A DNA stretch of 64,000 nucleotides from an uncultured virus (IMG/VR IMGVR_UViG_3300043427_002950) (lineage: Duplodnaviria > Heunggongvirae > Uroviricota > Caudoviricetes), in the IMG/VR virus record IMGVR_UViG_3300043427_002950, positions 62,001 through 126,000 of that record. One strand, 5' to 3'. The notes under the pieces were generated by a model that saw nothing but the letters and a program-made list of their open reading frames with translations, was not told where the DNA came from and did not search any database. Both the position numbers and the translations under genes were made by a program. This document shows, piece after piece, positions 1,680-43,558 of the stretch; positions within the stretch are counted from its first letter, which is position 1; the number at the start of each line of letters is the position of its first letter.

Positions 1680-4600
1680 ATGGCCTCAGTCAATAAAAAC
1701 TTTGTTGTTAGAAATGGTCTTGAGGTAAATACCAATTTAATTTATGCTGACATTGATACTCAAAGAGTTGGAATAGGTTTAACTCAACCTTTAGCATCTT
1801 TTCATGTTTTAGGCGATGCAATAATAAATCCAAATTTAACGGTTTCGCAAACGTTATCTGCTGGAAATGTTGATTCATCTTCTGGTTTATTTGGATCTCT
1901 TTCTGCAGGATCTGCAAGTTTAACTGGCGCAACTATTGGAAACCTATCAGTATCAAATAGCGCCTTAATTTCTAATGATCTTACAGTTGGAGATACTCTT
2001 ACTGTTGGAAAATATGCTGGTGATGGATCAGGACTTGTTGGTATTGTAACTCAAATTGTTGCAGGACCTGGAATTAGTATTGATGAAACGCAAGTACCTG
2101 GAAAAGGTATTGTAACAATTCAATCTTTTGCGCCAGTAGGTAAAACAGTATTTGTTACTACAAATGGTGATGATGCAAATAGTGGGCTGAGTGAAGCAGA
2201 TGCGAAGGCAACTATTAAAAGTGCAGCATCTGTTGCTTTAACAAGAGATACTATTAAAGTATATCCTGGGATTTATGTTGAAGAAAATCCAATAGTTTTA
2301 AATGAACTTGTTGCTGTAGAAGGAACTGAACTAAGAAACGTTGTAATAACACCAAAATTTCCTGAAAAGGATATGTTTTATGTCAACAATGGTTGCCATA
2401 TAACTGATTTAAGTTTTATAGGAAAAAACGCAAGAGATGGAGCTGCAATGGTATCTCTTGAAAAACTTTTGGGCACAAAGGAAGATCGATATTTTGATGC
2501 CGCAAGAATGCTTAGATTTAATCTAGACTTTCTTGCAAATGAATCTGTTGCTTGGCTGCATAGTGGATATAGTGGTTATGCTGGAGATCATCTTGCACAA
2601 GATGCTGCTAAAAAAATAGAAGCAAATATTGATTATATTGCTGCAGAAACTGTAGGATTTTTAACTGCTAGAAATGTAGGAACCCTTGGATATCTTGGAA
2701 GTAATGGTCAACCATTCGTTATTTCGGTCAATGGCGTTCCAACTGCCCCAGTAAATTGTGAAGATGATGTTAAAGATATATTAAAATCTTTAGTTAATGA
2801 TTTAAAATCTGGAAGTAATAAAAAATCAATAGGTGCTGCTAGAACATATTTCAGTGATGCTGGTGCTCTTCTTCACATTACTGGCAATGATACTAATAAC
2901 AATAGTATTTTAAAAGCTACTGTAGATGCTTTAAGTTTTGCTGCTGGAATAGCAACTCATGTCGTTAATAACATTGATTGGGCAACATCCCCAGCAGCAG
3001 TTGGATTTGGAACTACGACATTTGCAAATAGCAATGCATATGGATCTAGAGGGGTATATCAGGACTTAAGTTACGATCCACTTCCTGGAAATTGCACACT
3101 TACCATAGATGACGTTAAAACCAATATTGGTATTGTTACAAATACGTTATATCAACAATACATAAGTTCCAATGGATTAACATATCTTTCTGGGATTACT
3201 ACAACTTTTGGAGTTAATCTTGATGTAGAACAAGATTGCAGAGATGATATTAAGGATGTATGGAAAAGGATAGTACATGATTTAACTAGAGGTGGAAATA
3301 GTGAGGCAATAAACGCAGGAAGTGCTTATTATGATGATGACTGGAATTTAATTCCACAAATTCTTAAAAATCCACAAGAGGTCGAGCAAACAGTAGCAAC
3401 CTTAGAACATTCATTTTTAATTGCAAGATCAATTATTAATAATAACAATTTTTCATATTTAAGTTCTAGAGCAGCAGGAATTTCTACATATGGAAAACTT
3501 GTTGTTAGTAATGTTTTGTATGATAATGAATGCGGATTTGCAACGGTTTTCATTCAAGATCAAAATGGGAATGATGTTACAGTAGAAGATGCTGATATAA
3601 GACCAGGAGATCCAATTTATTTTGAGAATTTAATATTTGGTTGCGGAAGTGGTCCTGGTTTTTCAACTGCATATTTTCCATCAGAGGAAGCACAAACTGA
3701 ATATGGTGGAAAATATTATGGAAATATTTTCTGCGTATTTAGACTTCCACAAGATAATGCATTTTTCTCTGCAAATCCAAACACATTTGAAGTTTTGGTA
3801 GGTCCATCCACAATTGCACATTATCATTCTGGAGATGGTAGTGCGGAAGCTGGATCTGTAGGATGGAGCACGATTACAGAATGGCCCTATTCATCTGGAA
3901 CAATTGAAAGAAGATCACAATTTACTAAATCTTTTACTCAAGTAAAAGATGCTGCTATTCAAAAAGATCCTTCTCTGGGTTGTGAGGAATTTTTCCCCCA
4001 AGGAGTAAACGAATCTATTGCTGGTTGCAAAAATGTAGTTTCTACAATTAGAAATTTGGTAGGTGTTGTAACTACAATAATTGGATATGGACAAACTTCA
4101 GGAATTACTACGTCATTCCCAGGAAATAGAGGGGAAGGTATCCCATTTAGTAATGTTAAGTTTGTATCTGGTGCTACTTATGACGAGGTATTTGGTAAAG
4201 TTATAGTGACCGTACCTGGATTAAATGCAAGAAAGGGCGACAGAATAGAAATAAAGGATTTAGTATTTTCATGTTCTTCTGGAGGTCCAGTTTCCGAATC
4301 AGTATTTCCTTCAGGATTTTATGGATATAGATTTTATATTGATGATGTAAATGGGGATGACTATACATTAAATGTTGGAGTTTCTACATTACCTCATACT
4401 TATGAAAGAGATGGTTATGTAATTGATAGGACGTTTAACATAACCAGTGCTCCATATGACCATACTTCTGGAATTGTTACAATTACCGCCCCAGGAGCTT
4501 ATGTTTCAAGAGAAGATATTGTAACTATTCGTGATCTTACTTATTCTTGCAGCAGTGGGGGTCCAACGATTACAGCAACTTTCCCATCAGAATCTATTCA

Positions 4601-6185
4601 AACTGAATTCGGCGGAAAGTTTTATGGAAATGATTTTAAAGTTGTAGATATTATTTCCGATAGATTATATAATGCCACAAATTGTCAATATACTCATACA
4701 ACAGGAGTAACAACAATTACAGTAACTGATCCAAATTTTTCAGTTTCTGTTGATGATTTAATAGAAATAAGAGATTTTGAATTTACTTGTGCCAGTGGTG
4801 CTCAAACAACACCAATTTATCCATCTGGAAAATTTGGTTATGTATTTAAAGTTTATGGAGTTAATGGAAATGATCTCACAATTAATACTGGGGTAGGACC
4901 TTTCCCACACACATATGTTTCTGGCGGAACAGTTAGAAATGTAACACAAAGAAAGAGTTCAACTTTCACTTTAGATGTTGGAATTTCAACAATACCTCAT
5001 ACTTATATTGGAGATGGTTATATAATTCCTCCATATTCCCCAGGTGTTGGGCCAATTACACAAGGACCTTATATCAGAAATTGCACTAATTTTGTCGGTA
5101 ACAGTATAGGAATGAAAGTTGATGGATTTGATGCAGAACCTGGATATGAAGATGATATTGGCGTAACTGGAACAATGAGTGTTGACTCATATACTCAATA
5201 TAATCAAGGTGGCATAGGCGTTTCTATTACTAATGGCGGTTATTCTCAGTTAGTTTCTATCTTTACTATCTGTGATGATATTGCAATTTTCACTGGATCT
5301 GGTGGACAGTGTGACCTTACAAACTCTAATGCTTCTTTTGGAAATTATGGATTATATTCCAGTGGTGTTGGTGATGCAAATACAAAATCAATTTATCACA
5401 TGACAGGTTTTGTTGATGAAAGGGCAGAAGTTGAACAAGATAGAGTAATTATTGCTGGGGTAGGTACATATAGACCATATGATGGACAAGCACTTTATTT
5501 TGGTGAATTGTTCAAGAGTGTTAAGAGATTAAATGTTATTGATGGTGGAAGTGGATACAGTGCTTTAGTTCCCCCAAATGTTTCTATTGAACTTCCTCCC
5601 GAAAATGCAAGAGGAATTCGTGCTGAAGGAAGTGTAAACGTAGATCCTGTAACGGGAGCAATAACTTCAATTGATGTTATTAGTGAAGGAAGTCAGTATA
5701 GAAATGTTCCTATAGTAACTATTGATCCCCCATTTGCTGGGGGAACACAAGCAATAGCTCAAGCTGAAATGGAACCTATATATTATTTTGTAGAGTCTGC
5801 CACTATTCCGTGGAATAATGGAATTACTGGAATATCAACAGTTGTTCTTACGCAGAATCTAAATAATACAATAGAAGAAGATACTACTGTATATTTTTCT
5901 AGACTAAGTTTGCAAATTGCAACAACAATTTCTTTTGAATGGGTTGGAGCAGGAACAGACATTAATAAAGCAAAACCTGCACTTGGGGGTGTGACAATTG
6001 CCGAAAATGAAGTTGTGAAATTGAATGGAGGACAAGTTGTATTTACAAGTACAAATCAAGCAGGTAACTTTAGAATTGGAACTGATTTGACCATTAATCA
6101 GTTAACTGGAACAATTAGTGGAAGGGCATTCAGTCAAAGTCTATTGCAAACAGTAACACCACTCATCATCGCATTAGGTAAGTAA
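1680..6185 (+). CDS. Virion structural/tail scaffold protein A (1501 aa), paralog of 12576..16616
   Basis: MASVNKNFVVRNGL N-terminus; beta-helix-like core (VFVTTNGDDANSG...DSYTQYNQGGIGVSITN); Cys-containing helical repeats; YDHTSG...PHTY beta repeats; C-terminal TPLIIALGK. Confidence 0.75.
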   Translation: MASVNKNFVVRNGLEVNTNLIYADIDTQRVGIGLTQPLASFHVLGDAIINPNLTVSQTLSAGNVDSSSGLFGSLSAGSASLTGATIGNLSVSNSALISNDLTVGDTLTVGKYAGDGSGLVGIVTQIVAGPGISIDETQVPGKGIVTIQSFAPVGKTVFVTTNGDDANSGLSEADAKATIKSAASVALTRDTIKVYPGIYVEENPIVLNELVAVEGTELRNVVITPKFPEKDMFYVNNGCHITDLSFIGKNARDGAAMVSLEKLLGTKEDRYFDAARMLRFNLDFLANESVAWLHSGYSGYAGDHLAQDAAKKIEANIDYIAAETVGFLTARNVGTLGYLGSNGQPFVISVNGVPTAPVNCEDDVKDILKSLVNDLKSGSNKKSIGAARTYFSDAGALLHITGNDTNNNSILKATVDALSFAAGIATHVVNNIDWATSPAAVGFGTTTFANSNAYGSRGVYQDLSYDPLPGNCTLTIDDVKTNIGIVTNTLYQQYISSNGLTYLSGITTTFGVNLDVEQDCRDDIKDVWKRIVHDLTRGGNSEAINAGSAYYDDDWNLIPQILKNPQEVEQTVATLEHSFLIARSIINNNNFSYLSSRAAGISTYGKLVVSNVLYDNECGFATVFIQDQNGNDVTVEDADIRPGDPIYFENLIFGCGSGPGFSTAYFPSEEAQTEYGGKYYGNIFCVFRLPQDNAFFSANPNTFEVLVGPSTIAHYHSGDGSAEAGSVGWSTITEWPYSSGTIERRSQFTKSFTQVKDAAIQKDPSLGCEEFFPQGVNESIAGCKNVVSTIRNLVGVVTTIIGYGQTSGITTSFPGNRGEGIPFSNVKFVSGATYDEVFGKVIVTVPGLNARKGDRIEIKDLVFSCSSGGPVSESVFPSGFYGYRFYIDDVNGDDYTLNVGVSTLPHTYERDGYVIDRTFNITSAPYDHTSGIVTITAPGAYVSREDIVTIRDLTYSCSSGGPTITATFPSESIQTEFGGKFYGNDFKVVDIISDRLYNATNCQYTHTTGVTTITVTDPNFSVSVDDLIEIRDFEFTCASGAQTTPIYPSGKFGYVFKVYGVNGNDLTINTGVGPFPHTYVSGGTVRNVTQRKSSTFTLDVGISTIPHTYIGDGYIIPPYSPGVGPITQGPYIRNCTNFVGNSIGMKVDGFDAEPGYEDDIGVTGTMSVDSYTQYNQGGIGVSITNGGYSQLVSIFTICDDIAIFTGSGGQCDLTNSNASFGNYGLYSSGVGDANTKSIYHMTGFVDERAEVEQDRVIIAGVGTYRPYDGQALYFGELFKSVKRLNVIDGGSGYSALVPPNVSIELPPENARGIRAEGSVNVDPVTGAITSIDVISEGSQYRNVPIVTIDPPFAGGTQAIAQAEMEPIYYFVESATIPWNNGITGISTVVLTQNLNNTIEEDTTVYFSRLSLQIATTISFEWVGAGTDINKAKPALGGVTIAENEVVKLNGGQVVFTSTNQAGNFRIGTDLTINQLTGTISGRAFSQSLLQTVTPLIIALGK

Positions 6186-6187
6186 AA

Positions 6188-6556
6188 ATGGCAGCAATTG
6201 CACTTAATAAATTTAGAACAATTAGAACAAGAGTTACAACAAATAATGTTGGAATTTATACTTGTCCTATTGGTGTTGCTAGTATTATTATTAATTGGCA
6301 AATTACCAATGTTTCTACGGGAAATTCTGTTGGAATATCAAGTATAACTGCTTTACATGCAAGGGATCCAGATCCAGTGACTGGAGTTGTCAGCTTTAAA
6401 TTATCAAATGGAGTAATTATTCCTCCAAATGATGGATATAATATTGTTGGTGATGGAAGACTTGCTTTGGAAACTGGTGATGTTCTTTTCATTTCCGCAT
6501 CGGAAAATTGGAAACTTGAGTCCGTTTTAAGTGTATTAGAAACTGCAAAACAGTAA
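6188..6556 (+). CDS. Small beta-rich virion adaptor protein A (122 aa), paralog of 16621..16980
   Basis: IYTCPIG...QITNV...GRLALETGD...SVLETAK aligns with VYTAPIG...QVTNV...GKLILESGD...SILETLN. Confidence 0.75.
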   Translation: MAAIALNKFRTIRTRVTTNNVGIYTCPIGVASIIINWQITNVSTGNSVGISSITALHARDPDPVTGVVSFKLSNGVIIPPNDGYNIVGDGRLALETGDVLFISASENWKLESVLSVLETAKQ

Positions 6557-6561
6557 GATAA

Positions 6562-9258
6562 ATGACAAGAAATAGATACAACACAGGAAGATCTCTCAGA
6601 AGAGATGCAACTGGAATTACCAGTGATAGATATAGTTACATTGGATTAGATCAGGTTGAACCTCATCTTGGTGATCCTTCGGTTGGTATCGCATCTACTG
6701 GTAATAATCCGCCAGGATTGGGACTTCCAAGATCAACTTATGTTTTAGCAGCTAGACCTGGAGATCCGAGAAGATATTGGATCGATCCATTTGATTTGGA
6801 TACTGACGGCATTCAAGGTCTGCAGGGAACTCAGGGTTCTCAAGGTATGCAAGGCAATCAAGGCACCCAAGGTATGCAGGGTCTACAGGGTGCCTTGAGT
6901 AATTTCCAAGGAACCCAAGGGAGACAGGGAACTCAAGGTCTTCAGGGAAATCAAGGGAGACAAGGAACTCAAGGACTGCAAGGAGCACTTAGCAATTTCC
7001 AAGGAACTCAGGGAACAGCAAGTGGACAAGGTACTCAAGGTCTTCAAGGTCTTCAGGGAAATCAAGGAGTTCAAGGACCACAAGGAACTCAAGGATTCCA
7101 AGGGACAATAGGATCTCAGGGATACCAAGGTGTTCAAGGAATTGCAAATCAAGGTATTAGAGGAGATCAAGGTGTTCAAGGAGCTTTAAGTAATTTCCAA
7201 GGAACCCAAGGTGTTAATGGTCAACAAGGATTGCAAGGATTGCAAGGATTGTCCAACCAAGGTTTTCAGGGAATATCTGGACAAGCAGTATTTAAAGGAG
7301 ATCAAGGTGTTCAAGGTCTTCAAGGTGTTCAGGGTCCATTAAGTAATTTCCAAGGAACACAAGGAAGGCAAGGTCTTCAAGGTGTTCAAGGAGTTCAAGG
7401 TCTTCAGGGAAGGCAAGGTATTCAGGGTAATCAAGGTTTTCAAGGTGCCCAAGGATTTCCTGGAAGTGCTCAAGGAAATCAAGGAACACAGGGCGTTCAG
7501 GGACAAATTGGAAACTTCCAAGGAACTCAAGGTAGACAAGGTGCTCAAGGAGTTCAAGGAGTTCAAGGTCTTCAGGGAAGGCAAGGTGGTCAAGGAGTTC
7601 AAGGAATTCAAGGCAGTCAAGGTTTTTCAGGAACTTCTCAAGGTGTTCAAGGAACACAAGGATCCCAAGGCGTTCAAGGTCCACTAAGTAATTTCCAAGG
7701 TGTCCAAGGTCTTCAAGGTCTTTCTGGATCTTTACAAGGTCTTCAAGGAGAACAAGGCGTTCAAGGACTGCAAGGACTGCAAGGAAATCAAGGCGTTTCT
7801 GGTCAAAGTTTTAATCAAGGTCTCCAAGGAAGGCAAGGTCTTCAAGGAGTTCAAGGTCAAATTGGAAACTTCCAAGGAACTCAAGGTGTTCAAGGAAGAC
7901 AAGGAACACAAGGAACTATAGGAAATCAGGGATTCCAAGGAAGACAAGGAATACAAGGAACACAAGGTTTTCAAGGTGTTCAGGGGAATCAAGGTGTTCA
8001 GGGAAATCAAGGTATTCAAGGAAGAATTGGAACTTCTATTATTATTATTGGAACAGCCGCAAATATTTCCTCACAGTCTCCAGATCCATCCACTTACTTA
8101 ACAGCTACTTTTCCAGGTGCTCAACCAGGAAATGGTGTTGTTGATAGTGTTACCAATGAAGTCTGGGTATTGCAAGCCAATGGAACAACATGGGTTAATG
8201 TTGGAGATATTTCTATACAAGGTCTTCAAGGTCTTCAAGGTCCTCAAGGTGCTCAAGGATTCCAAGGAACACAAGGTAGACAAGGTGTTCAAGGTGTTCA
8301 AGGCATTCAAGGACTTCAAGGAAGACAAGGAAATCAAGGTGTTCAAGGTCTTCAAGGAATTCAAGGTCTTGCGGCAGCAAAACAATTGGGTGGTAAATTC
8401 TTATATGATACTGTACAGACAATAGCAGATCCTACTGGAAATGGATATTTTAGACTTAGCACTGCCTGGACTGGAGCTTTTACTCAGTTTGCAATAGACG
8501 AAACTGATTTTGAAGGAAATTCAATTGTATCGATACTGGATGCCGTTGAGGCTGTAAATAATCCACAAAAAGCTATCTTTACGTTTACAAAAATTGGAGA
8601 CTCTAATACTTTTGCTTCATTCTTTGTTACCAATAGAATTACTGATGGAGCAGCATTCAGAAGTTATTTTGTAACGAAAATTAGTTCTAATGGATCTCCC
8701 GTTCTTAATGATCAATTTAATTTAGTAGTGTCATTTGTAGGTGCTCAAGGAACCCAAGGCAGACAAGGACTTCAAGGATTACAGGGAGTTCAAGGAAATC
8801 AAGGAGTTCAGGGCCTTCAGGGTGGAAACTCTGAAACATCTTTGATTGTTGCACTTGGAGATGAATTTACAAACATTGGAATTGGAACAAGTGTAGTAAC
8901 ATTTAGGGTTCCATTTAAGTGTAGAATTACAGAACCACCAACAATTTCACTTTCATCTGCTGCAGTTGTTGGAATTACCAGTGTAGATGTTTTATATGCA
9001 GATAGAAATGCTAGCCCAGCTTCCTTTAATTCTTGGACAAGTATATACTCAAGTCGGACAACAGTAGCAAATATCGCAGTAGGAAACTACCAAAGTGAAA
9101 CTGGATTTGTTAATACCCCAACTCTCTTAAATTCACCAACAACATTCCCAAATCAAGTTTTAAATAGAAATGATCAATTAAGATTTGATATTACTGGAAT
9201 AGGAACTGGAGGAAAGGGATTGAAAGCAATAGTTTATTATTCTAAGGTATCACCATAA
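6562..9258 (+). CDS. Collagen-like (Gly-X-Gln) fibre protein A with interruptions and globular domains (898 aa)
   Basis: Three G-X-Q blocks separated by globular segments; C-terminal beta domain ending LNRNDQLRFDITGIG. Confidence 0.85.
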   Translation: MTRNRYNTGRSLRRDATGITSDRYSYIGLDQVEPHLGDPSVGIASTGNNPPGLGLPRSTYVLAARPGDPRRYWIDPFDLDTDGIQGLQGTQGSQGMQGNQGTQGMQGLQGALSNFQGTQGRQGTQGLQGNQGRQGTQGLQGALSNFQGTQGTASGQGTQGLQGLQGNQGVQGPQGTQGFQGTIGSQGYQGVQGIANQGIRGDQGVQGALSNFQGTQGVNGQQGLQGLQGLSNQGFQGISGQAVFKGDQGVQGLQGVQGPLSNFQGTQGRQGLQGVQGVQGLQGRQGIQGNQGFQGAQGFPGSAQGNQGTQGVQGQIGNFQGTQGRQGAQGVQGVQGLQGRQGGQGVQGIQGSQGFSGTSQGVQGTQGSQGVQGPLSNFQGVQGLQGLSGSLQGLQGEQGVQGLQGLQGNQGVSGQSFNQGLQGRQGLQGVQGQIGNFQGTQGVQGRQGTQGTIGNQGFQGRQGIQGTQGFQGVQGNQGVQGNQGIQGRIGTSIIIIGTAANISSQSPDPSTYLTATFPGAQPGNGVVDSVTNEVWVLQANGTTWVNVGDISIQGLQGLQGPQGAQGFQGTQGRQGVQGVQGIQGLQGRQGNQGVQGLQGIQGLAAAKQLGGKFLYDTVQTIADPTGNGYFRLSTAWTGAFTQFAIDETDFEGNSIVSILDAVEAVNNPQKAIFTFTKIGDSNTFASFFVTNRITDGAAFRSYFVTKISSNGSPVLNDQFNLVVSFVGAQGTQGRQGLQGLQGVQGNQGVQGLQGGNSETSLIVALGDEFTNIGIGTSVVTFRVPFKCRITEPPTISLSSAAVVGITSVDVLYADRNASPASFNSWTSIYSSRTTVANIAVGNYQSETGFVNTPTLLNSPTTFPNQVLNRNDQLRFDITGIGTGGKGLKAIVYYSKVSP

Positions 9259-10815: not shown

Positions 10816-10823
10816 TATAAATA
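10816..10823 (+). promoter_or_regulatory. T4-like late promoter TATAAATA
   Basis: Exact T4 late consensus in the intergenic gap before 10843. Confidence 0.8.
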
Positions 10824-11524: not shown

Positions 11525-12316
11525 ATGCCACTGCCAGTAATTCAATTTAAAAGAGGTGCTTATTCAGATCTTCCTGGATTGGCATTAGGAGAACCTGGAG
11601 TAACTACAGATACTAGAGACTTTTATATTGGATTTGATGGAACTCTGTTTGGAAATAGGTTTTTTGGTTCCGATAGATACTGGAGAAGGGAATCTTCTGG
11701 ATCTGGTGGTGGAATAAACTTATATGAAAATACTGATAACGGAGCAAACTTTATTGGGTTAAGAGCACCCTCTAATGTCCCGTCTACTTTTAGATATTAT
11801 TTACCACCAGCTCCTATTAATGATTATATTCTTTCCACTGATGGAGATGGAAATTTATTTTGGACAAATAGAATTATTGATCCAGTTTTATCTGGAGAAA
11901 TTGAAGTAGACGGAGATATTTCTGTAGGTGGAACATCTTCAAAGTTTAATACAGAAATTTTTGACACTCAAGCAAGAATTTTTAATGTAGGATTGGGAAC
12001 TATTTCCCCATCAAATACCACATGGGATTTGGGCGTATTATTTAATTATTATAAATCAAATACTAGATATAGATCTGGAATTTTTTGGGATGATAGTACT
12101 GGTAGAATTGGAATAGCATCAAATGTTTCCATTATAGCAAATGAATTTGGTGCTGCAACAACAGATCCAATCATAGATACATCATCAGTTGTTTATGCAC
12201 CAATGGTAATAAGTGGTTTATGGCTCAGTGATTGTTCTGGAGAATCTCAAGTTATTTCTTGTTCAAATTCAGAAAGAAATTTGGAAAATATTTCTATAGA
12301 CGGTGGATTTTATTGA
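11525..12316 (+). CDS. Tail fibre-like protein
   Basis: IQFKRG...LALGEPG...FYIG N-terminal module; GLRAP...YYLP...ILSTDGDGNLFW module; ends IDGGFY. Confidence 0.65.
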   Translation: MPLPVIQFKRGAYSDLPGLALGEPGVTTDTRDFYIGFDGTLFGNRFFGSDRYWRRESSGSGGGINLYENTDNGANFIGLRAPSNVPSTFRYYLPPAPINDYILSTDGDGNLFWTNRIIDPVLSGEIEVDGDISVGGTSSKFNTEIFDTQARIFNVGLGTISPSNTTWDLGVLFNYYKSNTRYRSGIFWDDSTGRIGIASNVSIIANEFGAATTDPIIDTSSVVYAPMVISGLWLSDCSGESQVISCSNSERNLENISIDGGFY

Positions 12317-12317
12317 C

Positions 12318-12325
12318 TATAAATA
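12318..12325 (+). promoter_or_regulatory. T4-like late promoter TATAAATA
   Basis: Exact consensus, intergenic. Confidence 0.75.
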
Positions 12326-12575: not shown

Positions 12576-15500
12576 ATGACAAGACCAATAATTCGTATTA
12601 AACGATCAACAACACCAGGGAGTAAGCCAAGTTTAGGACAACTCCAATTAGGTGAATTGGCTTTAAATACTAATGATATTGAGTTATATGCTCGTAGAGA
12701 AAGAGTAGGATTTGTTCCCGATATAGTTAGAATTGGTGCTGGTGCAACAGTAACCAATATTTTATACGTAACAAAGGACGGAAACGATAATAATACTGGA
12801 AAAAAACTTGGAGATGCAAAGGCAACGATTAAATCTGCAGTAGATGCATCAGAAACTGGAACGGTTATAAAAGTAAGTGCTGGTATTTATTTGGAAGACA
12901 ATCCAATAGCACTGCCAAGTCAGGTTAGTGTAGTTGGAGACAGTTTAAGAGAAGTTACAGTATCACCTTTAAATCCAGATAAGGATTTATTTTATGTTGC
13001 AAATGGAAATTATGTTGCGGAGATGTCATATACTGGATCTTTAAATCCAGGAAAAGCAATTTTTACGTTTAACCCAGAAAAGGTAGGTTATTTTAATCAA
13101 TCTCCATACATTCAAAACTGCACAAATTTTATTCCGAATAGTATAGGAATGAAGGTCGATGGTACTTATGCCATAGGACCTTTAAAATCAATGGTTCTTG
13201 ACTCATATACTCAATATAATCAAGGTGGTATAGGAGTTTCTATTACAAATGAAGGGTATGCTCAGCTAGTTTCTTTATTTACAATTTGTGACGACATAGC
13301 AGTTTTTTGTGGGTCGGGTGGTGCTTGCGATCTAACAAACTCAAACTCTTCTTTTGGAAATTATGCTTTAGTTGCAGATGGTGTTGGTCCAAAAAAATAC
13401 ACTGGAACAATAGTTGAGGGAGGTACAAGTACAGATCAATTTGTAATTGATTTAACTGTACCAACTTTAAATATCACGAATGCAATATATGATCATACAA
13501 CTGGAATTTTAACTGCATATACGGACCAAGAACACAATTTTAAAGTAGGTGTTGGAGTTTCAATTGTGGGACTTGCATTTACTTGCAGTTCTGATGGAGG
13601 GATCACACAACTTGAATATCCTACGGGCAATTATGGGTACATATTTGAACCGTTTATTGTTGCTCCTGGAAGATATTATGATGCATATAATTCTATTCAA
13701 GCAAATAAGAAAGAAATTCAAGATAAGGCACTAGCATCTATTGCATTAAATTATCCAGATTTTTACTTACCTGGAGATGAGCAAACAACTGATAGATCTA
13801 GATATTATGATTCATATCGTCTTATTAAGCAAAATCAAAGAGAAATTGCTGACAAAGCAGCATCAAAACTTGCAGTAGGATTTCCATCAGACTTCTATTT
13901 TCCAGATGAACCAGAAACTAATGAGAGATCAAGATTTTATGATGGATCTGGTTTAATTCAAAAGAATAGACAAGAAATTATTGATAAGTCACTTGCTGCT
14001 GTAGCAATTGCTCATTCAGATTTTTATTTTCCAGGCGATAATCAAACAAATGCAAGATCAAGATATGCAGATTCATATCGTTTAATTCAAAATAATAAAG
14101 ACGTAATAGTTTCTATTGCTTTTACTTCCGCAGTCAATAATCCAGGATTTGCTGGGACTGACTTTGCTGCTGTAATGGATAAATGTAAGAGAGATACTGG
14201 TTTATTCATTGATGCAGTTTCGACAGATATATTCACAGGTGGTAATAGTTATTCTATAGCATTTGCAAAATTTTATTTTGATGCTGATGGAAATCCTACA
14301 AATAATGGATTACTTGGAGAAGAATCAGAATCCATTTATGTTTTTGAACAAGCAAAGCAGTTGATGAAAGATGCTATTACCAACACTCTTGTCGGTGCTG
14401 CTTATAGTGATTTAACAATAACTGTAGACCCACTAACTGGATCAAACACAAATCCAAACTCATGTGCAAACGTTCGTTCCAATATTGATAACTTAGTTGG
14501 AATCATAACTTCGGTAATTGATAATGGAAATTTACTGTCACTTCCACCACAAAATTTTGGGTATTATGTTCAAGATAGTACTAATGTATTACCTCATACT
14601 TTAGCAGGAATAGGAACAACCAGTTCTCCTGGAGGATTAAAATGTGCGAGAGATCTTGGATATTTTATAGATGCAATTGCAACAGATTTATTTACAGGTG
14701 GAAATAAGTATTCAAGAGATTTTACATTACAGTATTTTGATGCTCAAACTGGTCAACCAATTTCCAATGGATTGATTAATGAAGAATCTCAATCAATAAC
14801 TGCATTTAATGCCGCAAGAGATCTATTTAAAAGAGCAGTTACAAATCAATTAAATATCAAAACTATTGGAATATCTTCTGGAACTGCAGAATATCTTGGA
14901 GCAGGTAATGATATTCCAGTTTTTCCATCAGGAAATGCAAATTCTTGTATTGATGTTCAAAATAATATAGACACATTAGTTGCAATATCCACTAATGTAA
15001 TTGGAGTTGGAACAACCGCATTCTTATCAACATTCAATGAGAACCTGGGAATTTCTACAACCAATAAGTGCATAAGGGATACGAGATATTTTGTCGATGC
15101 AATCGCAACTGATTTATTTGTTGGCGGAAATTATTATGCTTCTGAGTTTACAAAGCAATATTTTAATAATGTTGGTTCTGCAACAACGGCATTGCTCGGG
15201 GAAGAATCAGAATCTGTTTATGTATTCATGCAGGCATCTGAATTTTCAAAGAAAGCAATTACTAATCAATTAAATATACAAGATCTTACTCTCACTACAG
15301 ATTCAAATCCAGGAATAGGAACTACTTCTAATAAAAATCCAACATCTTGTACAAATGTTAGAAATACAATTGATACTCTTACTGGAATTGTTACTTCTGT
15401 AATTGTTTCCTCAGATCTTACTGAACTGCCACCAATAAATGAAGGAATATATTCCTTAGGATTATCAAAGTGTCGTAGAGATATTGGTTATTTAATTGAT

Positions 15501-16616
15501 TATGTATCTCTTGATGTAAGAGATTATACTAATGAGAACACAATTGACGCAACTAAATTTTATTTTAATTTGGATGGATCTCTCGATAACAGCATTGAGA
15601 ATGAAATACCACAAACAATCACTTCTTTTGAATCTGCAAGAGATTACATGAAACTTGCAATTAATAATCAGTTGAATAAGAAGAATTTTGATTTAATTGA
15701 AGATCCAACTACTCAGAGTAATAATAGTGAAAACTCTTGCTCTAATGTTAAATCTTATATTGATAATTTAGTTGGAATAGTTACAACTGCAATTTTTAAT
15801 GCAGATTTGAATATATCTCCTCTTCCATCAGTATCTGCAGCAAGTACTGTGTTTTCAGCATATGTTGGCACTGCTCCATTTGAACACTATTATGTTTCTG
15901 GTGGAACTGCAAAGATTGATGTCATAAGACCTTTCAACGGACAAGTAGTTTATTTTGAGGATCTTTATTATACTGTAAAAAATGTAATTATTTTAAATTC
16001 AGGAAGTGGATATTCGGAACCTCCAACATTATCTTTTGAATCTCCAGAGGTTGAATGGGGAATTCCAGCTCAAGCGGTTGCTGAAATACGAAGTGGATCA
16101 ATAACAAATATTGAACTCGTATCCAGTGGAAGAGGATATAAGATTCCTCCAAAAATTACAATTACTGGACCTCAAAGTGGAATAAATACAGCTACAGCAA
16201 TAGTAGAACTTACTCCAACTTATTATGTAATTACTGAAGCAACAGAAGTTTCTTCAGGAATTACAACAATAACTGTAGGAGAAAATGTTCCTTATTTTGT
16301 TGGTGTTGGAACAGAAGTTCCATTTTATAAACAAAGTAGAGTATTGGCATCTGGACATTCACTTGAATATATTGGTACGGGAATTGATATAGATAAATGT
16401 TTGCCTAGATTGGGAGGAGTTCCTATTCCAGAAAATGAAACTGATGCTCGTAATGGTGGATTAGTTGTTTACACAAGCACAGATCAAGCAGGAAACTTTA
16501 AAATTGGTGACGGTGTAATTATTAATCAAACTACAGGATCTATTACTGGTGATTTTTATTCCAAGAGTTTGTTTGCAACTATGACACCATTTATCCTAGC
16601 ATTAGGAGGAGATTAA
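12576..16616 (+). CDS. Virion structural/tail scaffold protein B (1346 aa)
   Basis: Shares core blocks with 1680..6185 (DAKATIKSA, CTNF..NSIGMKVDG, DSYTQYNQGGIGVSITN, QAGNF.IG, TPFILALG). Has four helical repeat units. ATAAATA at 12523. Confidence 0.75.
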   Translation: MTRPIIRIKRSTTPGSKPSLGQLQLGELALNTNDIELYARRERVGFVPDIVRIGAGATVTNILYVTKDGNDNNTGKKLGDAKATIKSAVDASETGTVIKVSAGIYLEDNPIALPSQVSVVGDSLREVTVSPLNPDKDLFYVANGNYVAEMSYTGSLNPGKAIFTFNPEKVGYFNQSPYIQNCTNFIPNSIGMKVDGTYAIGPLKSMVLDSYTQYNQGGIGVSITNEGYAQLVSLFTICDDIAVFCGSGGACDLTNSNSSFGNYALVADGVGPKKYTGTIVEGGTSTDQFVIDLTVPTLNITNAIYDHTTGILTAYTDQEHNFKVGVGVSIVGLAFTCSSDGGITQLEYPTGNYGYIFEPFIVAPGRYYDAYNSIQANKKEIQDKALASIALNYPDFYLPGDEQTTDRSRYYDSYRLIKQNQREIADKAASKLAVGFPSDFYFPDEPETNERSRFYDGSGLIQKNRQEIIDKSLAAVAIAHSDFYFPGDNQTNARSRYADSYRLIQNNKDVIVSIAFTSAVNNPGFAGTDFAAVMDKCKRDTGLFIDAVSTDIFTGGNSYSIAFAKFYFDADGNPTNNGLLGEESESIYVFEQAKQLMKDAITNTLVGAAYSDLTITVDPLTGSNTNPNSCANVRSNIDNLVGIITSVIDNGNLLSLPPQNFGYYVQDSTNVLPHTLAGIGTTSSPGGLKCARDLGYFIDAIATDLFTGGNKYSRDFTLQYFDAQTGQPISNGLINEESQSITAFNAARDLFKRAVTNQLNIKTIGISSGTAEYLGAGNDIPVFPSGNANSCIDVQNNIDTLVAISTNVIGVGTTAFLSTFNENLGISTTNKCIRDTRYFVDAIATDLFVGGNYYASEFTKQYFNNVGSATTALLGEESESVYVFMQASEFSKKAITNQLNIQDLTLTTDSNPGIGTTSNKNPTSCTNVRNTIDTLTGIVTSVIVSSDLTELPPINEGIYSLGLSKCRRDIGYLIDYVSLDVRDYTNENTIDATKFYFNLDGSLDNSIENEIPQTITSFESARDYMKLAINNQLNKKNFDLIEDPTTQSNNSENSCSNVKSYIDNLVGIVTTAIFNADLNISPLPSVSAASTVFSAYVGTAPFEHYYVSGGTAKIDVIRPFNGQVVYFEDLYYTVKNVIILNSGSGYSEPPTLSFESPEVEWGIPAQAVAEIRSGSITNIELVSSGRGYKIPPKITITGPQSGINTATAIVELTPTYYVITEATEVSSGITTITVGENVPYFVGVGTEVPFYKQSRVLASGHSLEYIGTGIDIDKCLPRLGGVPIPENETDARNGGLVVYTSTDQAGNFKIGDGVIINQTTGSITGDFYSKSLFATMTPFILALGGD

Positions 16617-16620
16617 AGAA

Positions 16621-16980
16621 ATGGCATTAGCACTTAATGTATTCCAAACTGTAACAAAAGTTTTACAGACAACACAACAAGAAGTTTACACAGCTCCAAT
16701 TGGATATACTGGGGTTTTTTTGTTAGCGCAGGTAACAAATGTTGGCAATGTTTCTGAAGATGTTACTGTTTTACATAGGAGAATAGTTTCTGGATCTCCA
16801 GTAGATACTGAATTGATGAAAAGTTATCCAGTTTCTGGGACAGACACTTTAAATCTTTTTGGTGGAAAATTAATTTTAGAAAGTGGAGATAGATTGGTAA
16901 TATCATCAAGTAATAATGCGGGAATAGTTTCTGGAACTAATTTAAAATTTGTAGGAAGTATATTAGAAACTCTTAACTAA
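16621..16980 (+). CDS. Small beta-rich virion adaptor protein B (119 aa)
   Basis: Paralog of 6188..6556 in the same relative gene position. Confidence 0.75.
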   Translation: MALALNVFQTVTKVLQTTQQEVYTAPIGYTGVFLLAQVTNVGNVSEDVTVLHRRIVSGSPVDTELMKSYPVSGTDTLNLFGGKLILESGDRLVISSSNNAGIVSGTNLKFVGSILETLN

Positions 16981-16982
16981 CA

Positions 16983-19900
16983 ATGGCAAAAAATTACCTA
17001 AGCAATCGTCAACGCAGAGTTAATATTGGTATTGTTTCATATACGGAAAATGAAACAGTACTGTCGATTGCTGCTGGTAAAGTTGGAGTAGGAACAAATA
17101 ATGCAATATTAGATTTACATGTAGAAGGAAAAGGATATTTTTCAGATGCAGTTGCAATAGGAACAGAAACTCCTCAGGGAGCTGCTTTATGGGTCGATGG
17201 AGATGGATATTTTACGGGGGTAGTTACTGCAAGAACATTTTTTGCAGGTCCAACAGAAATTACTGGGGGGCAAATTGTTGATGAAGCTGCAATTCAAAAG
17301 TTAAGGACACAAACCTTATTTGTTGCTGGAATTACAACATTTTTAAATGGAACTGTAAGTATTGGAGTAGGAACTGGAGTAACAACTGGAACACCAAATC
17401 AGTTATTTCAAGTTTATAGTGGAGCATATATTAATGGTTCTGTAGGAATAGGAACAACTATTGTATATTCCGACTCCAAATTACATGTTGCTGGCAGTTT
17501 GAAATTAGACGGAACAGTATACGATAAAGATGGATTTGGTGGGAATTTAGATGACCTTCTTTATTCAAATGGCGATGGAACTGTTTCTTGGAAAACTGCT
17601 TTACAAGGTACTCAGGGTACTCAAGGTCTTCAAGGCGCATTAAGTAATTTTCAAGGAACTCAGGGTGTTCAAGGAGTTCAAGGTCTCCAAGGTAATCAGG
17701 GAGTTCAAGGTCTTCAAGGTCTTCAAGGACACCAGGGAACTCAAGGAGTTCAAGGATTGCAAGGAAATCAGGGAGTTCAAGGTCTTCAAGGTCTTCAAGG
17801 ACACCAGGGAACTCAAGGAGTTCAAGGAGTTCAAGGTCTCCAAGGTAATCAGGGAGTTCAAGGTCTTCAAGGTCTTCAAGGACACCAGGGAACTCAAGGA
17901 GTTCAAGGATTGCAAGGAGATCAAGGTGTTCAAGGTCTTCAGGGAAATCAAGGAGTCCAGGGAACACAAGGTCTTCAGGGTTTCCAAGGAAATCAGGGAG
18001 TTCAAGGTCTTCAAGGTCTTCAAGGACACCAGGGAACTCAAGGAGTTCAAGGATTGCAAGGAGATCAAGGTGTTCAAGGTCTTCAAGGTCTTCAAGGACA
18101 CCAGGGAACTCAAGGAGTTCAAGGATTGCAAGGAGATCAAGGTGTTCAAGGTCTTCAAGGTCTTCAAGGACACCAGGGAACTCAAGGAGTTCAAGGATTG
18201 CAAGGAGATCAAGGTGTTCAAGGTCTTCAGGGAAATCAAGGAGTCCAGGGAACACAAGGTCTTCAGGGTTTCCAAGGAAATCAGGGAGTTCAAGGAATAC
18301 AAGGTCTTCAGGGAAATCAAGGAGTTCAAGGTCTTCAAGGAAATCAGGGAGTCCAGGGAGTCCAGGGAGTCCAAGGTCTCCAGGGAAATCAAGGAGTTCA
18401 AGGTCTTCAAGGAAATCAGGGAGTCCAGGGAGTCCAGGGAGTCCAAGGTCTCCAAGGAAATCAGGGACTCCAAGGCAATCAGGGAGTCCAGGGAGTCCAA
18501 GGTCTTCAGGGAAATCAAGGAGTTCAAGGAACTCAGGGACTCCAAGGCAATCAGGGAGTCCAGGGAGTCCAAGGTCTTCAGGGAAATCAAGGAGTTCAAG
18601 GAACTCAGGGACTCCAAGGCAATCAGGGAGTCCAGGGAGTCCAAGGTCTTCAGGGAAATCAAGGAGTTCAAGGAACCCAAGGTCTTCAAGGCAATCAAGG
18701 AGTTCAAGGAACACAAGGTCTTCAAGGTAATCAAGGAGTCCAAGGAACCCAAGGTCTTCAAGGCAATCAAGGAGTTCAGGGCAATCAAGGAACCCAAGGT
18801 GTTCAGGGTTTACAAGGAAATCAAGGAGTTCAAGGAAATCAGGGACTCCAAGGTAATCAAGGAGTTCAAGGAACTCAGGGACTCCAAGGTAATCAAGGAG
18901 TTCAAGGAACTCAGGGACTCCAAGGTAATCAAGGAGTACAAGGAACACAAGGTCTTCAAGGTAATCAAGGAGTTCAAGGTCTTCAAGGTAATCAAGGAGT
19001 CCAGGGAACTCAGGGACTTCAAGGTAATCAAGGAGTTCAAGGAAATCAGGGAGTCCAAGGAATACAAGGTCTTCAAGGTTTCCAAGGTGTCCAAGGTGTT
19101 CAAGGTCTCCAAGGAAATCAGGGAGTCCAAGGAATACAAGGTCTTCAAGGTTTCCAAGGTGTCCAAGGTGTTCAAGGTCTCCAAGGAAATCAGGGAGTCC
19201 AAGGAATACAAGGTCTTCAAGGTTTCCAAGGTGTCCAAGGTGTTCAAGGTCTCCAAGGAAATCAAGGTGTTCAAGGTGTTCAAGGTCTCCAAGGTTTCCA
19301 AGGAACTCAAGGAACCCAAGGAGTTCAAGGTCTTCAAGGAAATCAGGGAGTTCAAGGAACACAAGGTCTTCAAGGTTTCCAAGGTGTTCAAGGAACACAA
19401 GGACTTCAGGGGAATCAGGGAGTTCAAGGAACACAAGGTCTTCAAGGTTTCCAAGGTGTTCAAGGAACACAAGGACTTCAGGGGAATCAGGGAGTTCAAG
19501 GAACACAAGGTCTTCAAGGTTTCCAAGGCGTTCAGGGTGTCCAAGGATTACAGGGAAATCAAGGAGTCCAAGGTCTCCAAGGAAATCAGGGAGTTCAAGG
19601 TGTTCAAGGAACTCAGGGTCTCCAAGGCAATCAAGGGGTTCAAGGAACACAGGGTCTTCAAGGTTTCCAAGGTGCTCAAGGAACTCAGGGTGTACAAGGT
19701 CTCCAGGGAAATCAGGGAGTTCAAGGAACTCAGGGATTACAAGGAAATCAGGGAGTTCAAGGTGTTCAGGGTCTCCAGGGAAATCAGGGAGTTCAAGGAG
19801 TTCAAGGTCTCCAAGGAAATCAAGGAGTTCAAGGTGTTCAAGGAACCCAAGGTCTCCAAGGCAATCAAGGAGTCCAAGGTGTCCAAGGTGTCCAAGGATT

Positions 19901-21524
19901 ACAAGGAAATCAGGGAGTCCAAGGTGCCCAAGGATTACAAGGAAATCAGGGAGTCCAAGGTGTCCAAGGATTACAAGGAAATCAGGGAGTCCAAGGTGTC
20001 CAAGGTCTCCAGGGAAATCAAGGAGTTCAAGGTGTTCAAGGAACCCAAGGTCTCCAGGGAAATCAGGGAGTTCAAGGAACTCAGGGATTACAAGGAAATC
20101 AGGGAGTTCAAGGAGTTCAAGGTCTCCAAGGAAATCAAGGAGTTCAAGGTGTTCAAGGAACCCAAGGTCTCCAAGGCAATCAAGGAGTTCAAGGAGTTCA
20201 AGGTGTTCAGGGTCTCCAAGGAAATCAGGGAGTTCAAGGTGTTCAAGGAACCCAAGGTCTCCAAGGTAATCAAGGAGTTCAAGGAGTTCAAGGTCTCCAA
20301 GGAAATCAAGGTGTCCAAGGTGTCCAAGGAAATCAGGGTGTCCAAGGTGTTCAAGGTCTTCAAGGAAATCAGGGTGTCCAAGGTGTTCAAGGTCTTCAAG
20401 GAAATCAGGGTGTCCAAGGTGTTCAAGGTCTCCAGGGAGTTCAAGGAAATCAAGGAGTTCAGGGAGTCCAAGGTCTCCAAGGTAATCAAGGTGTTCAAGG
20501 TCTTCAAGGAAATCAGGGTGTCCAAGGTGTCCAAGGTCTCCAGGGAGTTCAAGGTCTCCAAGGTGTTCAAGGTCTTCAAGGAAATCAGGGAGTCCAAGGT
20601 GTCCAAGGTCTTCAAGGAAATCAAGGAGTTCAAGGTGTCCAAGGGCTCCAAGGAAATCAAGGAGTTCAAGGTGTCCAAGGTGTCCAAGGATTACAAGGAA
20701 ATCAGGGAGTCCAAGGTGTCCAAGGTGTTCAAGGTCTCCAAGGAAATCAAGGAGTTCAAGGTGTCCAAGGTGTCCAAGGATTACAAGGAAATCAGGGAGT
20801 CCAAGGTGTCCAAGGATTACAAGGAAATCAGGGTGTTCAAGGCGTTCAAGGTCTTCAAGGAAATCAGGGAGTCCAAGGTGTCCAAGGATTACAAGGAAAT
20901 CAGGGTGTTCAAGGCGTTCAAGGTCTTCAAGGAAATCAGGGAGTCCAAGGTGTTCAAGGTTTACAAGGAAATCAGGGAGTTCAAGCAACTCAAGGACTCC
21001 AGGGTGTTCAAGGATTGCAAGGTCTTCAAGGCGCACTTAGCAATTTCCAGGGAACACAAGGAACACAAGGAAATCAGGGATTACAAGGAACACAAGGAAA
21101 ACAAGTATCAATTCCAGATCAAACAGTCATAATTGCATTTGAAGAGGTGTTTGATGGGTCTAGAACTACATTTACTCCATATGATAAAGTATTATTTGCA
21201 AATCAAGGATATTCTGTTGGATCTGGAAATCTTGCACGATTCATAAATAATGAGATAGACAGTTTGGCAAGATTTATACTTTCTGTCGGTGGAATTATTC
21301 AAGAACCAGATCCATCAAATAATCGTGGATTTAACACCAATCAAATTGGTGGTGGTGGAAATAATAAAGCAGCAGACCCAATTACTATCGCATTTGTTGA
21401 GGCACCAAAAGTTACAGATTCCTTCTTTGGGTATGCTGTTAAATCTACAAATTCCCCAACAAATATAAATCAATTTGGAACAGTTACAGATTCTATAGTT
21501 TATTCAATCATATTCGGAGTATAA
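16983..21524 (+). CDS. Very long collagen-like (Gly-X-Gln) fibre protein B (1513 aa)
   Basis: N-terminal VGIGT fibre repeats, ~1160 residues of G-X-Q, C-terminal domain ending DSIVYSIIFGV. Confidence 0.9.
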   Translation: MAKNYLSNRQRRVNIGIVSYTENETVLSIAAGKVGVGTNNAILDLHVEGKGYFSDAVAIGTETPQGAALWVDGDGYFTGVVTARTFFAGPTEITGGQIVDEAAIQKLRTQTLFVAGITTFLNGTVSIGVGTGVTTGTPNQLFQVYSGAYINGSVGIGTTIVYSDSKLHVAGSLKLDGTVYDKDGFGGNLDDLLYSNGDGTVSWKTALQGTQGTQGLQGALSNFQGTQGVQGVQGLQGNQGVQGLQGLQGHQGTQGVQGLQGNQGVQGLQGLQGHQGTQGVQGVQGLQGNQGVQGLQGLQGHQGTQGVQGLQGDQGVQGLQGNQGVQGTQGLQGFQGNQGVQGLQGLQGHQGTQGVQGLQGDQGVQGLQGLQGHQGTQGVQGLQGDQGVQGLQGLQGHQGTQGVQGLQGDQGVQGLQGNQGVQGTQGLQGFQGNQGVQGIQGLQGNQGVQGLQGNQGVQGVQGVQGLQGNQGVQGLQGNQGVQGVQGVQGLQGNQGLQGNQGVQGVQGLQGNQGVQGTQGLQGNQGVQGVQGLQGNQGVQGTQGLQGNQGVQGVQGLQGNQGVQGTQGLQGNQGVQGTQGLQGNQGVQGTQGLQGNQGVQGNQGTQGVQGLQGNQGVQGNQGLQGNQGVQGTQGLQGNQGVQGTQGLQGNQGVQGTQGLQGNQGVQGLQGNQGVQGTQGLQGNQGVQGNQGVQGIQGLQGFQGVQGVQGLQGNQGVQGIQGLQGFQGVQGVQGLQGNQGVQGIQGLQGFQGVQGVQGLQGNQGVQGVQGLQGFQGTQGTQGVQGLQGNQGVQGTQGLQGFQGVQGTQGLQGNQGVQGTQGLQGFQGVQGTQGLQGNQGVQGTQGLQGFQGVQGVQGLQGNQGVQGLQGNQGVQGVQGTQGLQGNQGVQGTQGLQGFQGAQGTQGVQGLQGNQGVQGTQGLQGNQGVQGVQGLQGNQGVQGVQGLQGNQGVQGVQGTQGLQGNQGVQGVQGVQGLQGNQGVQGAQGLQGNQGVQGVQGLQGNQGVQGVQGLQGNQGVQGVQGTQGLQGNQGVQGTQGLQGNQGVQGVQGLQGNQGVQGVQGTQGLQGNQGVQGVQGVQGLQGNQGVQGVQGTQGLQGNQGVQGVQGLQGNQGVQGVQGNQGVQGVQGLQGNQGVQGVQGLQGNQGVQGVQGLQGVQGNQGVQGVQGLQGNQGVQGLQGNQGVQGVQGLQGVQGLQGVQGLQGNQGVQGVQGLQGNQGVQGVQGLQGNQGVQGVQGVQGLQGNQGVQGVQGVQGLQGNQGVQGVQGVQGLQGNQGVQGVQGLQGNQGVQGVQGLQGNQGVQGVQGLQGNQGVQGVQGLQGNQGVQGVQGLQGNQGVQATQGLQGVQGLQGLQGALSNFQGTQGTQGNQGLQGTQGKQVSIPDQTVIIAFEEVFDGSRTTFTPYDKVLFANQGYSVGSGNLARFINNEIDSLARFILSVGGIIQEPDPSNNRGFNTNQIGGGGNNKAADPITIAFVEAPKVTDSFFGYAVKSTNSPTNINQFGTVTDSIVYSIIFGV
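17607..21100 (+). repeat. 9-bp-period coding tandem repeat (GGN-NNN-CAR) with higher-order perfect repeats
   Basis: Directly visible; e.g. a 72-bp unit repeated three times exactly at 19041..19256. Confidence 0.95.
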
Positions 21525-27658: not shown

Positions 27659-27660
27659 TT

Positions 27661-36193: not shown

Positions 36194-36397
36194 ATGAACG
36201 CAACACGAAAGAAATTCATCTCAGTCATTCCATTGTCCAAACAAGCAAAAATCAGGTTTTCTGAAGATATGGATTTATTCCATTCATGCTTGGTCGAAAA
36301 TGAAACTGAAACTATGTTTTATTTGCAATCACTAAATAAGCAGTACAGATTTTGTGTTGAAAAAAAAGGTAATTGTCATTGGAGAATTGAAAAATGA
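36194..36397 (+). CDS. Hypothetical phage protein
   Basis: 67-aa ORF ATGA-coupled to the dehydratase. Confidence 0.6.
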   Translation: MNATRKKFISVIPLSKQAKIRFSEDMDLFHSCLVENETETMFYLQSLNKQYRFCVEKKGNCHWRIEK

Positions 36398-42230: not shown

Positions 42231-42231
42231 A

Positions 42232-43325: not shown

Positions 43326-43558
43326 TCATGAATGATGCATATTATGGTTGGGGAGTTGATTGCGATTGGGACTGGTTGAATCTTCTTATTGAAATGAAAG
43401 CAAAAAATCCTCAGAGGTTTTATGCATTTTACAACGATGCTTCGATTTATTATTATATGGAGAAACTCCAAGATAGGCAACATACATTGGATTAACGCAT
43501 AGTTTTCCTCTGATAGAGTGGCGTAAAACGCCTAATTACATAAGATACATAAGAACCA

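Follow-up and report, generated by a model that had tools for sequence, protein, structure and literature searches.

A predicted proline-free Gly-X-Gln collagen-like fibre of 375 triplets in the tail-fibre region of an uncultured cyanophage

We describe a collagen-like gene in a 64,000-nucleotide stretch of DNA (the window), which comprises bases 62001-126000 of the 127,876-bp IMG/VR virus record IMGVR_UViG_3300043427_002950, a record estimated by CheckV to be 61% complete. The gene (16983..21524, + strand, as are all features of this locus) encodes P0001, a protein of 1,513 aa and 150.6 kDa that matches the Pfam Collagen family. Its first 224 residues (16983..17654) form a non-collagen domain with an anchor, MAKNYLSNRQ..IGIVSYTENETVL, and beta-helix-type motifs, and end in the interruption GALSNFQ (17634..17654, aa 218-224). 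An array of 375 Gly-X-Gln triplets follows (17655..21029), with a single Gly-to-Ala codon at 20985..20987. Behind it lie a second GALSNFQ (21030..21050, aa 1350-1356), six more Gly-X-Gln triplets (21051..21104) and a C-terminal tip domain of 139 aa (21105..21521), predicted to be a beta-sandwich.

A scripted census counts exactly 3,375 nt, or 375 in-frame triplets, between the two GALSNFQ motifs. Gly stands at every third residue, as in a collagen, in 374 of the triplets (the other has Ala), and 370 of them (17655-20984) form the longest unbroken Gly-X-Y run. Position Y is Gln in all 375, and position X is Val in 142, Leu in 98, Asn in 73, Thr in 36, Phe in 10, His in 6, Asp in 4, Ile in 4 and Ala in 2. 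The array is devoid of Pro, Lys, Arg and Glu, and its 1,125 residues include just 4 Asp and 6 His. The original prediction, made by reading the translation, had described some 370 uninterrupted triplets with Gln at every Y, these same nine residues at X, no Pro, almost no charge and one Gly-to-Ala change at 20985; the census reproduces its total of 375 exactly, as well as its composition and the start of the Ala codon, in the sequence as assembled.

Tandem Repeats Finder reports one array (17652-21031) with a period of 36 or 45 nt and 73% matches, and sub-blocks marked by their X residues succeed one another along it, with His-containing 8-triplet units followed by VTLN, VILFVVLN and VVLN. At bases 1 and 2, 749 of the 750 Gly and Gln codons show no variation. 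Base 3 varies, with Gly codons ending in A (210), T (149), C (12) or G (4), and Gln codons in A (283) or G (92), never in T or C, which would encode His. Because the first two codon bases are fixed and the third is free, selection is on the protein, and the repeat is not a mere DNA satellite; this indicates an array maintained by protein-level selection and not by chance. The long open reading frames (ORFs) in other frames and on the opposite strand are by-products of the repeat, and the Gly-X-Gln frame alone runs into domains that have homologues. Within that frame of 1,515 codons the Pfam Collagen model (PF01391) finds 30 matches, scoring 36.9-43.1 bits against a cut-off of 27.2.

As is typical of phage collagen fibres, P0001 is encoded among the tail-fibre and baseplate genes of a phage genome; in PHROG scans the genes around it are labelled as tail-fibre, baseplate or virion proteins. 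It is the last gene of a cassette with the order large protein, small protein, fibre, and this order is found twice in the window (1680..9258 and 12576..21524), each time on the + strand. In the second cassette a 1,346-aa tail-fibre/tailspike-like protein (12576..16616), which falls into PHROG tail-fibre families, and a 119-aa protein (16621..16980) precede P0001. In the first, a 1,501-aa protein (1680..6185) and a 122-aa protein (6188..6556) precede P0002, a second collagen-like fibre of 898 aa (6562..9258) in which Gly-X-Gln segments are interrupted by seven xxxNFQ motifs and by globular inserts. The large proteins are paralogues (E 3e-46), as are the small ones (37% identity, E 8e-15), and the 119-aa protein matches no Pfam family; although these two genes are paralogous between cassettes, the N-terminal anchors of P0001 and P0002 are unrelated.

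The large protein encoded at 12576..16616 has homologues in 397 phage records (312 Synechococcus, 59 Cyanophage and 14 Prochlorococcus), where tail fibre is the usual annotation. Those that match best come from the freshwater phages B3, B23 and S-SRM01, and P-SSM2, S-PM2 and S-SKS1 are among the other phages with homologues. In S-SRM01, gp329, gp330 and gp331 have the same order as 12576..16616, 16621..16980 and 16983... Gene order and the homology of the first two genes to those of cultured cyanophages thus place P0001 in a cyanomyovirus three-gene fibre cassette. A tblastn search of cultured phages with P0002 returned no match, probably as a result of low-complexity masking. As a separate observation, residues 369-408 of the 12576..16616 product give a sub-threshold match to the Pfam Phycobilisome family (E 3.9e-4, 20.9 bits against a cut-off of 22.2).

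Both ends of P0001 recur on other fibres, which is again the build of a phage collagen fibre, a stalk between N- and C-terminal domains found elsewhere. The N-terminal domain is common to 30 proteins of 832-2,648 aa and to 27 shorter ones (E<=1e-3). Its first 40 or so residues are the most conserved part and head many different fibres, with M1, R9, G16, I17, S19, Y20, L27 and G32 invariant in 14 sequences. All 14 long anchor-bearing proteins that were inspected have non-collagen shafts, and a Gly-X-Gln shaft follows the anchor in three of the 27 shorter proteins (P0053, P0072 and P0076). For the C-terminal domain, 1.84 billion representatives include 20 relatives at E<=1e-3, and a tblastn search of cultured phages gave no match; like the N-terminal domain, it corresponds to no Pfam family. 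It forms the protein end in 16 of 16 relatives inspected. In three of them (P0033-P0035) it lies directly behind ordinary Pro-containing collagen repeats, so the same tip also sits on conventional collagen stalks; in the other 13 it lies behind non-collagen fibres, some with Mtd_N-like N-termini. Since anchor and tip are each shared with other proteins, both ends are exchangeable fibre modules.

With moderate confidence, we interpret P0001 as a trimeric collagen-like thread for host capture, about 320 nm long if triple-helical. The array would be the shaft of a tail or baseplate side-fibre whose proximal end is presumably the N-terminus; its place and orientation on the virion, its trimeric and triple-helical state and its function are all putative. 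A virus-encoded filament of about 320 nm serving host capture had been proposed in the original prediction, and the analysis bears this out in several respects: the sequence is viral, from an IMG/VR contig that carries T4-like cyanophage genes; the array forms the shaft of a fibre protein encoded in a cluster of tail-fibre genes and passes the Pfam Collagen model; and its 1,125 residues at 0.286 nm each would span 322 nm given a triple helix. Host capture fits the gene neighbourhood; the two other roles suggested in the original prediction, drag and grazing avoidance, draw no support from the analysis. A length of 322 nm exceeds that of the whole T4 particle and is more than twice that of the T4 long tail fibre.

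Several observations weigh against this interpretation, in the modelling of its structure, in the composition of the array, in its assembled length and in its relatives, and we consider them here with the alternatives on which they bear. To begin with, the trimer and the triple helix of P0001 are themselves predictions from sequence. A trimer prediction with three copies of residues 1290-1513 gave a median score of 0.29 against a mark of 0.32, which speaks neither for nor against. The AlphaFold2 model of the N-terminal 224 residues, from a 14-row alignment, is unusable (predicted local distance difference test score, pLDDT, 51), and that of the C-terminal domain is a beta-sandwich with a pLDDT of 69.8. 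A wide VIA search with the latter gave Z of 4.4-7.7, within the tool's stated noise, and a Foldseek search of the PDB found nothing at E<=1e-3 (best E 0.041); the weak PDB matches are all phage tail parts.

In BFVD 19 proteins match the same model at E<=1e-3 (2e-6 to 1e-3); they are T7-like tail fibres of cyanopodoviruses and 'baseplate wedge initiator' proteins of cyanomyoviruses. That the best matches include the N-terminal virion-attachment domains of the former, along with the latter, raises the alternative that the C-terminal domain is the virion-attached end of P0001. Equally, the protein might be a virion fibre with no part in adsorption, a decoration or whisker that spaces virions, sticks to particles or mucus, or forms bundles with its neighbours, and the exposed Val/Leu/Gln surface would favour such lateral sticking. 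We regard this group of alternatives as rather unlikely. The likeness of the tip to a T7 gp17-type attachment domain is weak, with the best PDB match at E 0.041 and Z of 4.4-7.7 in the noise band, and the conserved N-terminal 40 residues head many fibres, in keeping with the usual arrangement in phages, where the N-terminus is proximal. A role outside adsorption is also at odds with the position of the gene in a tail-fibre cassette.

To our knowledge, all collagens whose stability has been explained rely on Pro or hydroxyproline (Hyp), charge pairs or glycosylated Thr. The array lacks substantial Pro/Hyp and charge pairs, and with them both documented Hyp-free stabilisers, high Pro at X and charge pairs. 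No collagen-modifying oxygenase was found among the 39 window ORFs scanned with Pfam, and outside the window the sole candidate is a sub-threshold 2OG-FeII_Oxy_3 match (20.2 bits against 27) at G000:C1:45532-45855. Viral collagens have on average 22% Pro at X and 13% Gln at Y, according to Table 4 of PMC3368898. Hydrophobic residues (V, L, I or F) fill X at 254 of the 375 positions, where they would be exposed on a triple helix. Furthermore, successive Asn residues are 4 or 5 triplets apart in 48 of 72 cases and Leu precedes 66 of the 73 Asn, a regular Leu-Gln-Gly-Asn spacing that could mark the turns of another fold.

These features, the absence of Pro and charge pairs and an Asn every 4-5 triplets, usually as Leu-Gln-Gly-Asn, would suit a protein that forms no collagen triple helix at all, either a compact polyglycine-II-type bundle of 12-15-residue Gly-X-Gln strands with Gly-Asn turns or a hydrated, disordered, Gln-rich tether. 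We consider both quite improbable. In polyglycine-II bundles, of the snow-flea antifreeze type, turns connect short Gly-X-X strands, and the side chains on the face where strands pack are small. These turns normally break register, whereas here 370 triplets continue without a break in Gly phase, and the residues at X and Y are bulky (Val, Leu and Gln) instead of small. More generally, the Pfam Collagen model matches throughout the array, the milder members of the family contain Pro, and in relatives the tip domain follows ordinary Pro-rich collagen, all of which argue against these alternatives.

A single assembly underlies the exact triplet count. Exact repeats inside the array extend to 158 nt, and five 72-nt tandem blocks remain identical for 98-158 nt; in all, 883 of the 3,375 nt belong to exact repeats at least 127 nt long. 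Of the 127-mers, 210 of 3,384 are not unique, and of the 55-mers, 1,264 of 3,456. The copy number of the exact tandem blocks, whose step is 8 triplets, is uncertain, and a mis-join is possible. The stretch is partly represented in thirteen public runs, and 82-84% of the sampled words occur in four freshwater runs, which belong to two studies; one of the matching runs may be the source sample. We compared the Logan k=31 contigs of runs X1, X3, X5 and X8 with the array region. Contigs of X1 and X3 are 100% identical to the flanks of the array and to several unique pieces of its interior, and X5 (which carries a marine label) and X8 match partly, with differences, from which we draw no claim about habitat. 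Among the contigs of these four runs none spans the array, and there are many repeat-induced joints, one of which, in X3, links both GALSNFQ regions. This joint is probably spurious, with sides of only 21 nt, though a short form of the array could exist. Summed depths within the array cannot be read as copy number.

The relatives of P0001 bear on length as well. Three orthologues, 66-79% identical, emerged from a scan of metagenomes with the anchor. The one whose anchor is 79% identical is a complete ORF with 176 unbroken triplets (169 with Gln, 1 Pro) and a different tip, and the other two, two-thirds of the orthologous contigs, end inside the array. P0053, with an anchor 73% identical to that of P0001, has a shaft of just about 19 triplets and carries the P0002 tip domain at its C-terminus. 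In S-SRM01, the closest cultured genome, the positional orthologue gp331 (YP_010670306) has an anchor 36% identical over residues 1-159; it differs in being a 219-aa protein with zero collagen triplets. Exact P0001 is absent from a collection of 15 billion proteins, as is exact P0002, and two exact strings from the window have no match in viral or metagenome contig collections, where records of this genome itself may be missing.

The array might thus be real and its assembled length nonetheless off by more than about 20% in either direction, through a short-read mis-count or a mis-join, possibly of two collagen genes. In favour of such an error are the exact repeats of up to 158 nt, the five exact 72-nt tandem blocks and the non-unique 55-mers and 127-mers, the fragmentation and false joints of the k=31 contigs of all four runs inside the array, and the break within the array in two of three orthologous contigs. 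The genome also has at least two further Gly-X-Gln genes able to mislead an assembler, and P0053, which combines the anchor of P0001 with the tip of its paralogue, reflects either real shuffling or a chimaera. We nevertheless judge an error of this size to be unlikely, though not negligible. As many as 94% of the 127-mers are unique, distinct sub-blocks succeed one another in order along the array, the unique interior pieces 17913-18007, 19245-19346 and 19499-19726 recur at 100% identity in runs of two studies, and independent contigs show runs of 176 and 210 triplets.

Long Gly-X-Gln runs of this kind are found in other viruses too. An IMG/VR scan seeded with the C-terminal 164 aa returned 68 loci, nearly all matched through the GALSNFQGTQGT region only; having been found through NFQGTQGT-type patterns, they are a biased sample for the frequency of the class. 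Of the 109 open frames in them that have at least 20 triplets, those listed carry Gln at Y in 73-100% of triplets and Pro at 0-5% of positions. L021 and L022 have the longest unbroken runs, of 210 triplets, followed by runs of 116, 111, 96, 93 and 89, and L060 has 388 triplets whose sole breaks are two-residue 'NQ' insertions. In six of six relatives inspected (L021, L060, L067, L018, L017 and L071) a large protein of the type encoded by the first cassette gene has Gly-X-Gln collagen fused at its N-terminus, in place of a collagen encoded by a third gene of its own. Cultured cyanophages carry versions that are annotated as collagen or tail-fibre proteins: S-CRM01 gp20 (134 triplets, 82 with Gln at Y, 29 Pro), S-CRM01 gp23 (60 triplets, 40 with Gln at Y, 12 Pro) and S-SCSM2R_204 (63 triplets, 51 with Gln at Y, 4 Pro). 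Judged by these sequences, the array in the window is the extreme of a real and widespread Gly-X-Gln class, the longest, with pure Gln at Y and no Pro, and is not unique.

The interruption motif also recurs in this class. GALSNFQ amounts to a Gly-to-Ser triplet plus one extra residue and shifts the Gly register by one residue; G(A/P)LSNFQ or GQIGNFQ is present in the Gly-X-Gln collagens of many viral contigs, with up to 29 NFQG per protein, and the motif stands at seven sites within P0002 (6562-9258). It may set the register or act as a hinge.

Scl2-type bacterial collagens have about 80 triplets or fewer, and type I collagen has about 338 uninterrupted triplets, a length comparable with that of the array. 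Type I collagen differs in its charge clusters and D-periodic fibrils and has no sequence relationship to the array; it depends on Hyp, with about 20% imino acids (PMC3368898). The recombinant bacterial collagens, including streptococcal Scl2, are described as Hyp-free Gly-X-Y helices nucleated by a non-collagen trimerisation domain and stabilised by electrostatics (PMC4066190); they are cell-surface proteins and not virion fibres. Phage proteins of a similar build are EPclA-D, collagen-like tail-fibre proteins of E. coli O157:H7 prophages, which are trimeric and for which a Hyp-free triple helix has been shown experimentally, with a melting temperature of 42 C for EPclA (PMC3368898). They resemble P0001 in being phage-encoded with a collagen stalk between non-collagen domains. 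However, the EPcl stalks are short, have Pro at 48% of X and Gln at 14.5% of Y, are rich in charge (GPK, GER) and are stabilised by Pro and charge (PMC3368898), whereas the P0001 array has no Pro and 4 Asp in 1,125 residues.

Among T4-like cyanophages, orf028 of the Prochlorococcus phage P-SSM2 has Gly-X-Y over 49% of its length and was proposed as a tail-fibre candidate; from its description, with X and Y often Pro, Ser or Thr, it is not Gly-X-Gln (PMC1079782). Collagen repeats are also reported in structural proteins of pelagimyophages (PMC7029224). S-CRM01, a freshwater phage, has gp20 and gp23 annotated as 'collagen triple helix repeat protein / tail fiber protein', and these two, S-SCSM2R_204 and a DSL-LC02 tail-fibre protein share with P0001 a place in the cyanomyovirus tail-fibre region, Gln-dominated Y positions and DNA detectable by blastn. 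S-CRM01 gp20, gp23 and S-SCSM2R_204 differ from P0001 in that their longest runs are 66, 50 and 25 triplets, Pro is present, the end domains are others and there is no pure Gly-X-Gln run. Phage collagen-like fibres are already known, and what is new here is the extreme proline-free Gly-X-Gln form. We found no paper on Gly-X-Gln or proline-free phage collagens in a literature coverage that excluded the S-PM2 and S-CRM01 genome papers and the review of Yu et al. 2014.

The source is probably an uncultured freshwater T4-like cyanophage of the Kyanoviridae type with a cyanobacterial host. Nearly all long ORFs of the window are on the + strand, and PHROG and Pfam scans find typical cyanomyovirus cargo elsewhere in it, namely CobS, peptide deformylase, RNA ligases and sugar-nucleotide enzymes. 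Against cultured phages the 14-kb fibre region has S-SRM01 as its sole match, over 5% of its length. A third collagen-type match (37.6 bits) lies in the same virus record outside the window, in a 178-codon open frame on the - strand (G000:C1:4810-4974).

Two more fibre-like proteins are encoded between the cassettes (9283-10809 and 11525-12316), one with Gly_rich_2 (PF21722) and one with Mtd_N (PF18454, 26.7 bits against a cut-off of 26.3). The T4-type late-promoter word TATAAATA occurs at 10816-10823 and 12318-12325, in the intergenic gaps before 10843.. and the second cassette (12576..); the window as a whole has 5 matches to it against 4.46 expected, which is no enrichment, all 5 of them on the + strand. 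Downstream of the fibre genes are glycan-related genes (27655-28779, 29597-33322, 36394-37416 and 58767-59399), which include a nucleotidyl-transferase/HAD fusion, a 1,241-aa protein with GT2, GT25, WavE and FkbM-methyltransferase domains, a GDP-mannose-dehydratase-type epimerase and a sulfotransferase; these could decorate fibres or host glycans. An RNA-repair-like cluster (41046-46798) comprises an Rnl1-type RNA ligase, an HNH endonuclease, a polynucleotide-kinase-like ATPase, a second RNA ligase and peptide deformylase.

Returning to P0001 as a host-capture thread, we propose that the N-terminal anchor would dock the fibre on the baseplate together with the products of the first two cassette genes. 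The protein would be a trimer, in line with phage fibres and collagens at large. The C-terminal beta-sandwich would register three chains and nucleate a zipper-like folding of the helix, by which the chains would form a triple-helical collagen about 320 nm long, and either the sandwich or the shaft itself would contact the host cell surface. Imino-poor collagen is flexible, so the fibre would be a thread and not a rod, and a long thread would enlarge the radius of first contact between phage and cell. The shaft probably lengthened through tandem duplications, with units of 36, 45 and 72 nt, and orthologues vary widely in shaft length.

With no Pro, Hyp or ion pairs, the stability of such a helix must come from its length, its end domains and its Gln. 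It might be supplied by cooperative length, the terminal domains, the invariant Gln at Y (through side-chain hydrogen bonds or hydration) and a cool habitat, Gln at Y being a hypothetical stabiliser; a Gln ladder, glycosylation or a polyglycine-II bundle may each be a candidate for what holds the structure together. A more speculative proposal, which we offer tentatively, is that Gly-X-Gln is a third way to build a triple helix, with neither imino acids nor charge, held by an inter-chain ladder of Gln hydrogen bonds or hydration. Phages would use it for uninterrupted threads of at least 0.3 um whose length is tuned as repeats expand and contract (orthologues have 19, 176 and 375 triplets), with GALSNFQ as a cap or hinge that sets the register.

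Gly-X-Gln collagens of this class are common in viral metagenomes, and the main interest of this array is biophysical. If the interpretation is true, a natural helix of 1,100 residues that dispenses with the known stabilisers would be a new design rule for collagen biophysics and recombinant biomaterials, and Gly-X-Gln offers a very simple repeat with which to test it. For the phages themselves, a flexible thread several times longer than the T4 tail fibre would alter the rates at which cyanophages are estimated to meet their sparse planktonic hosts, and a shaft whose length shifts by repeat slippage would be a fast-evolving adsorption trait.

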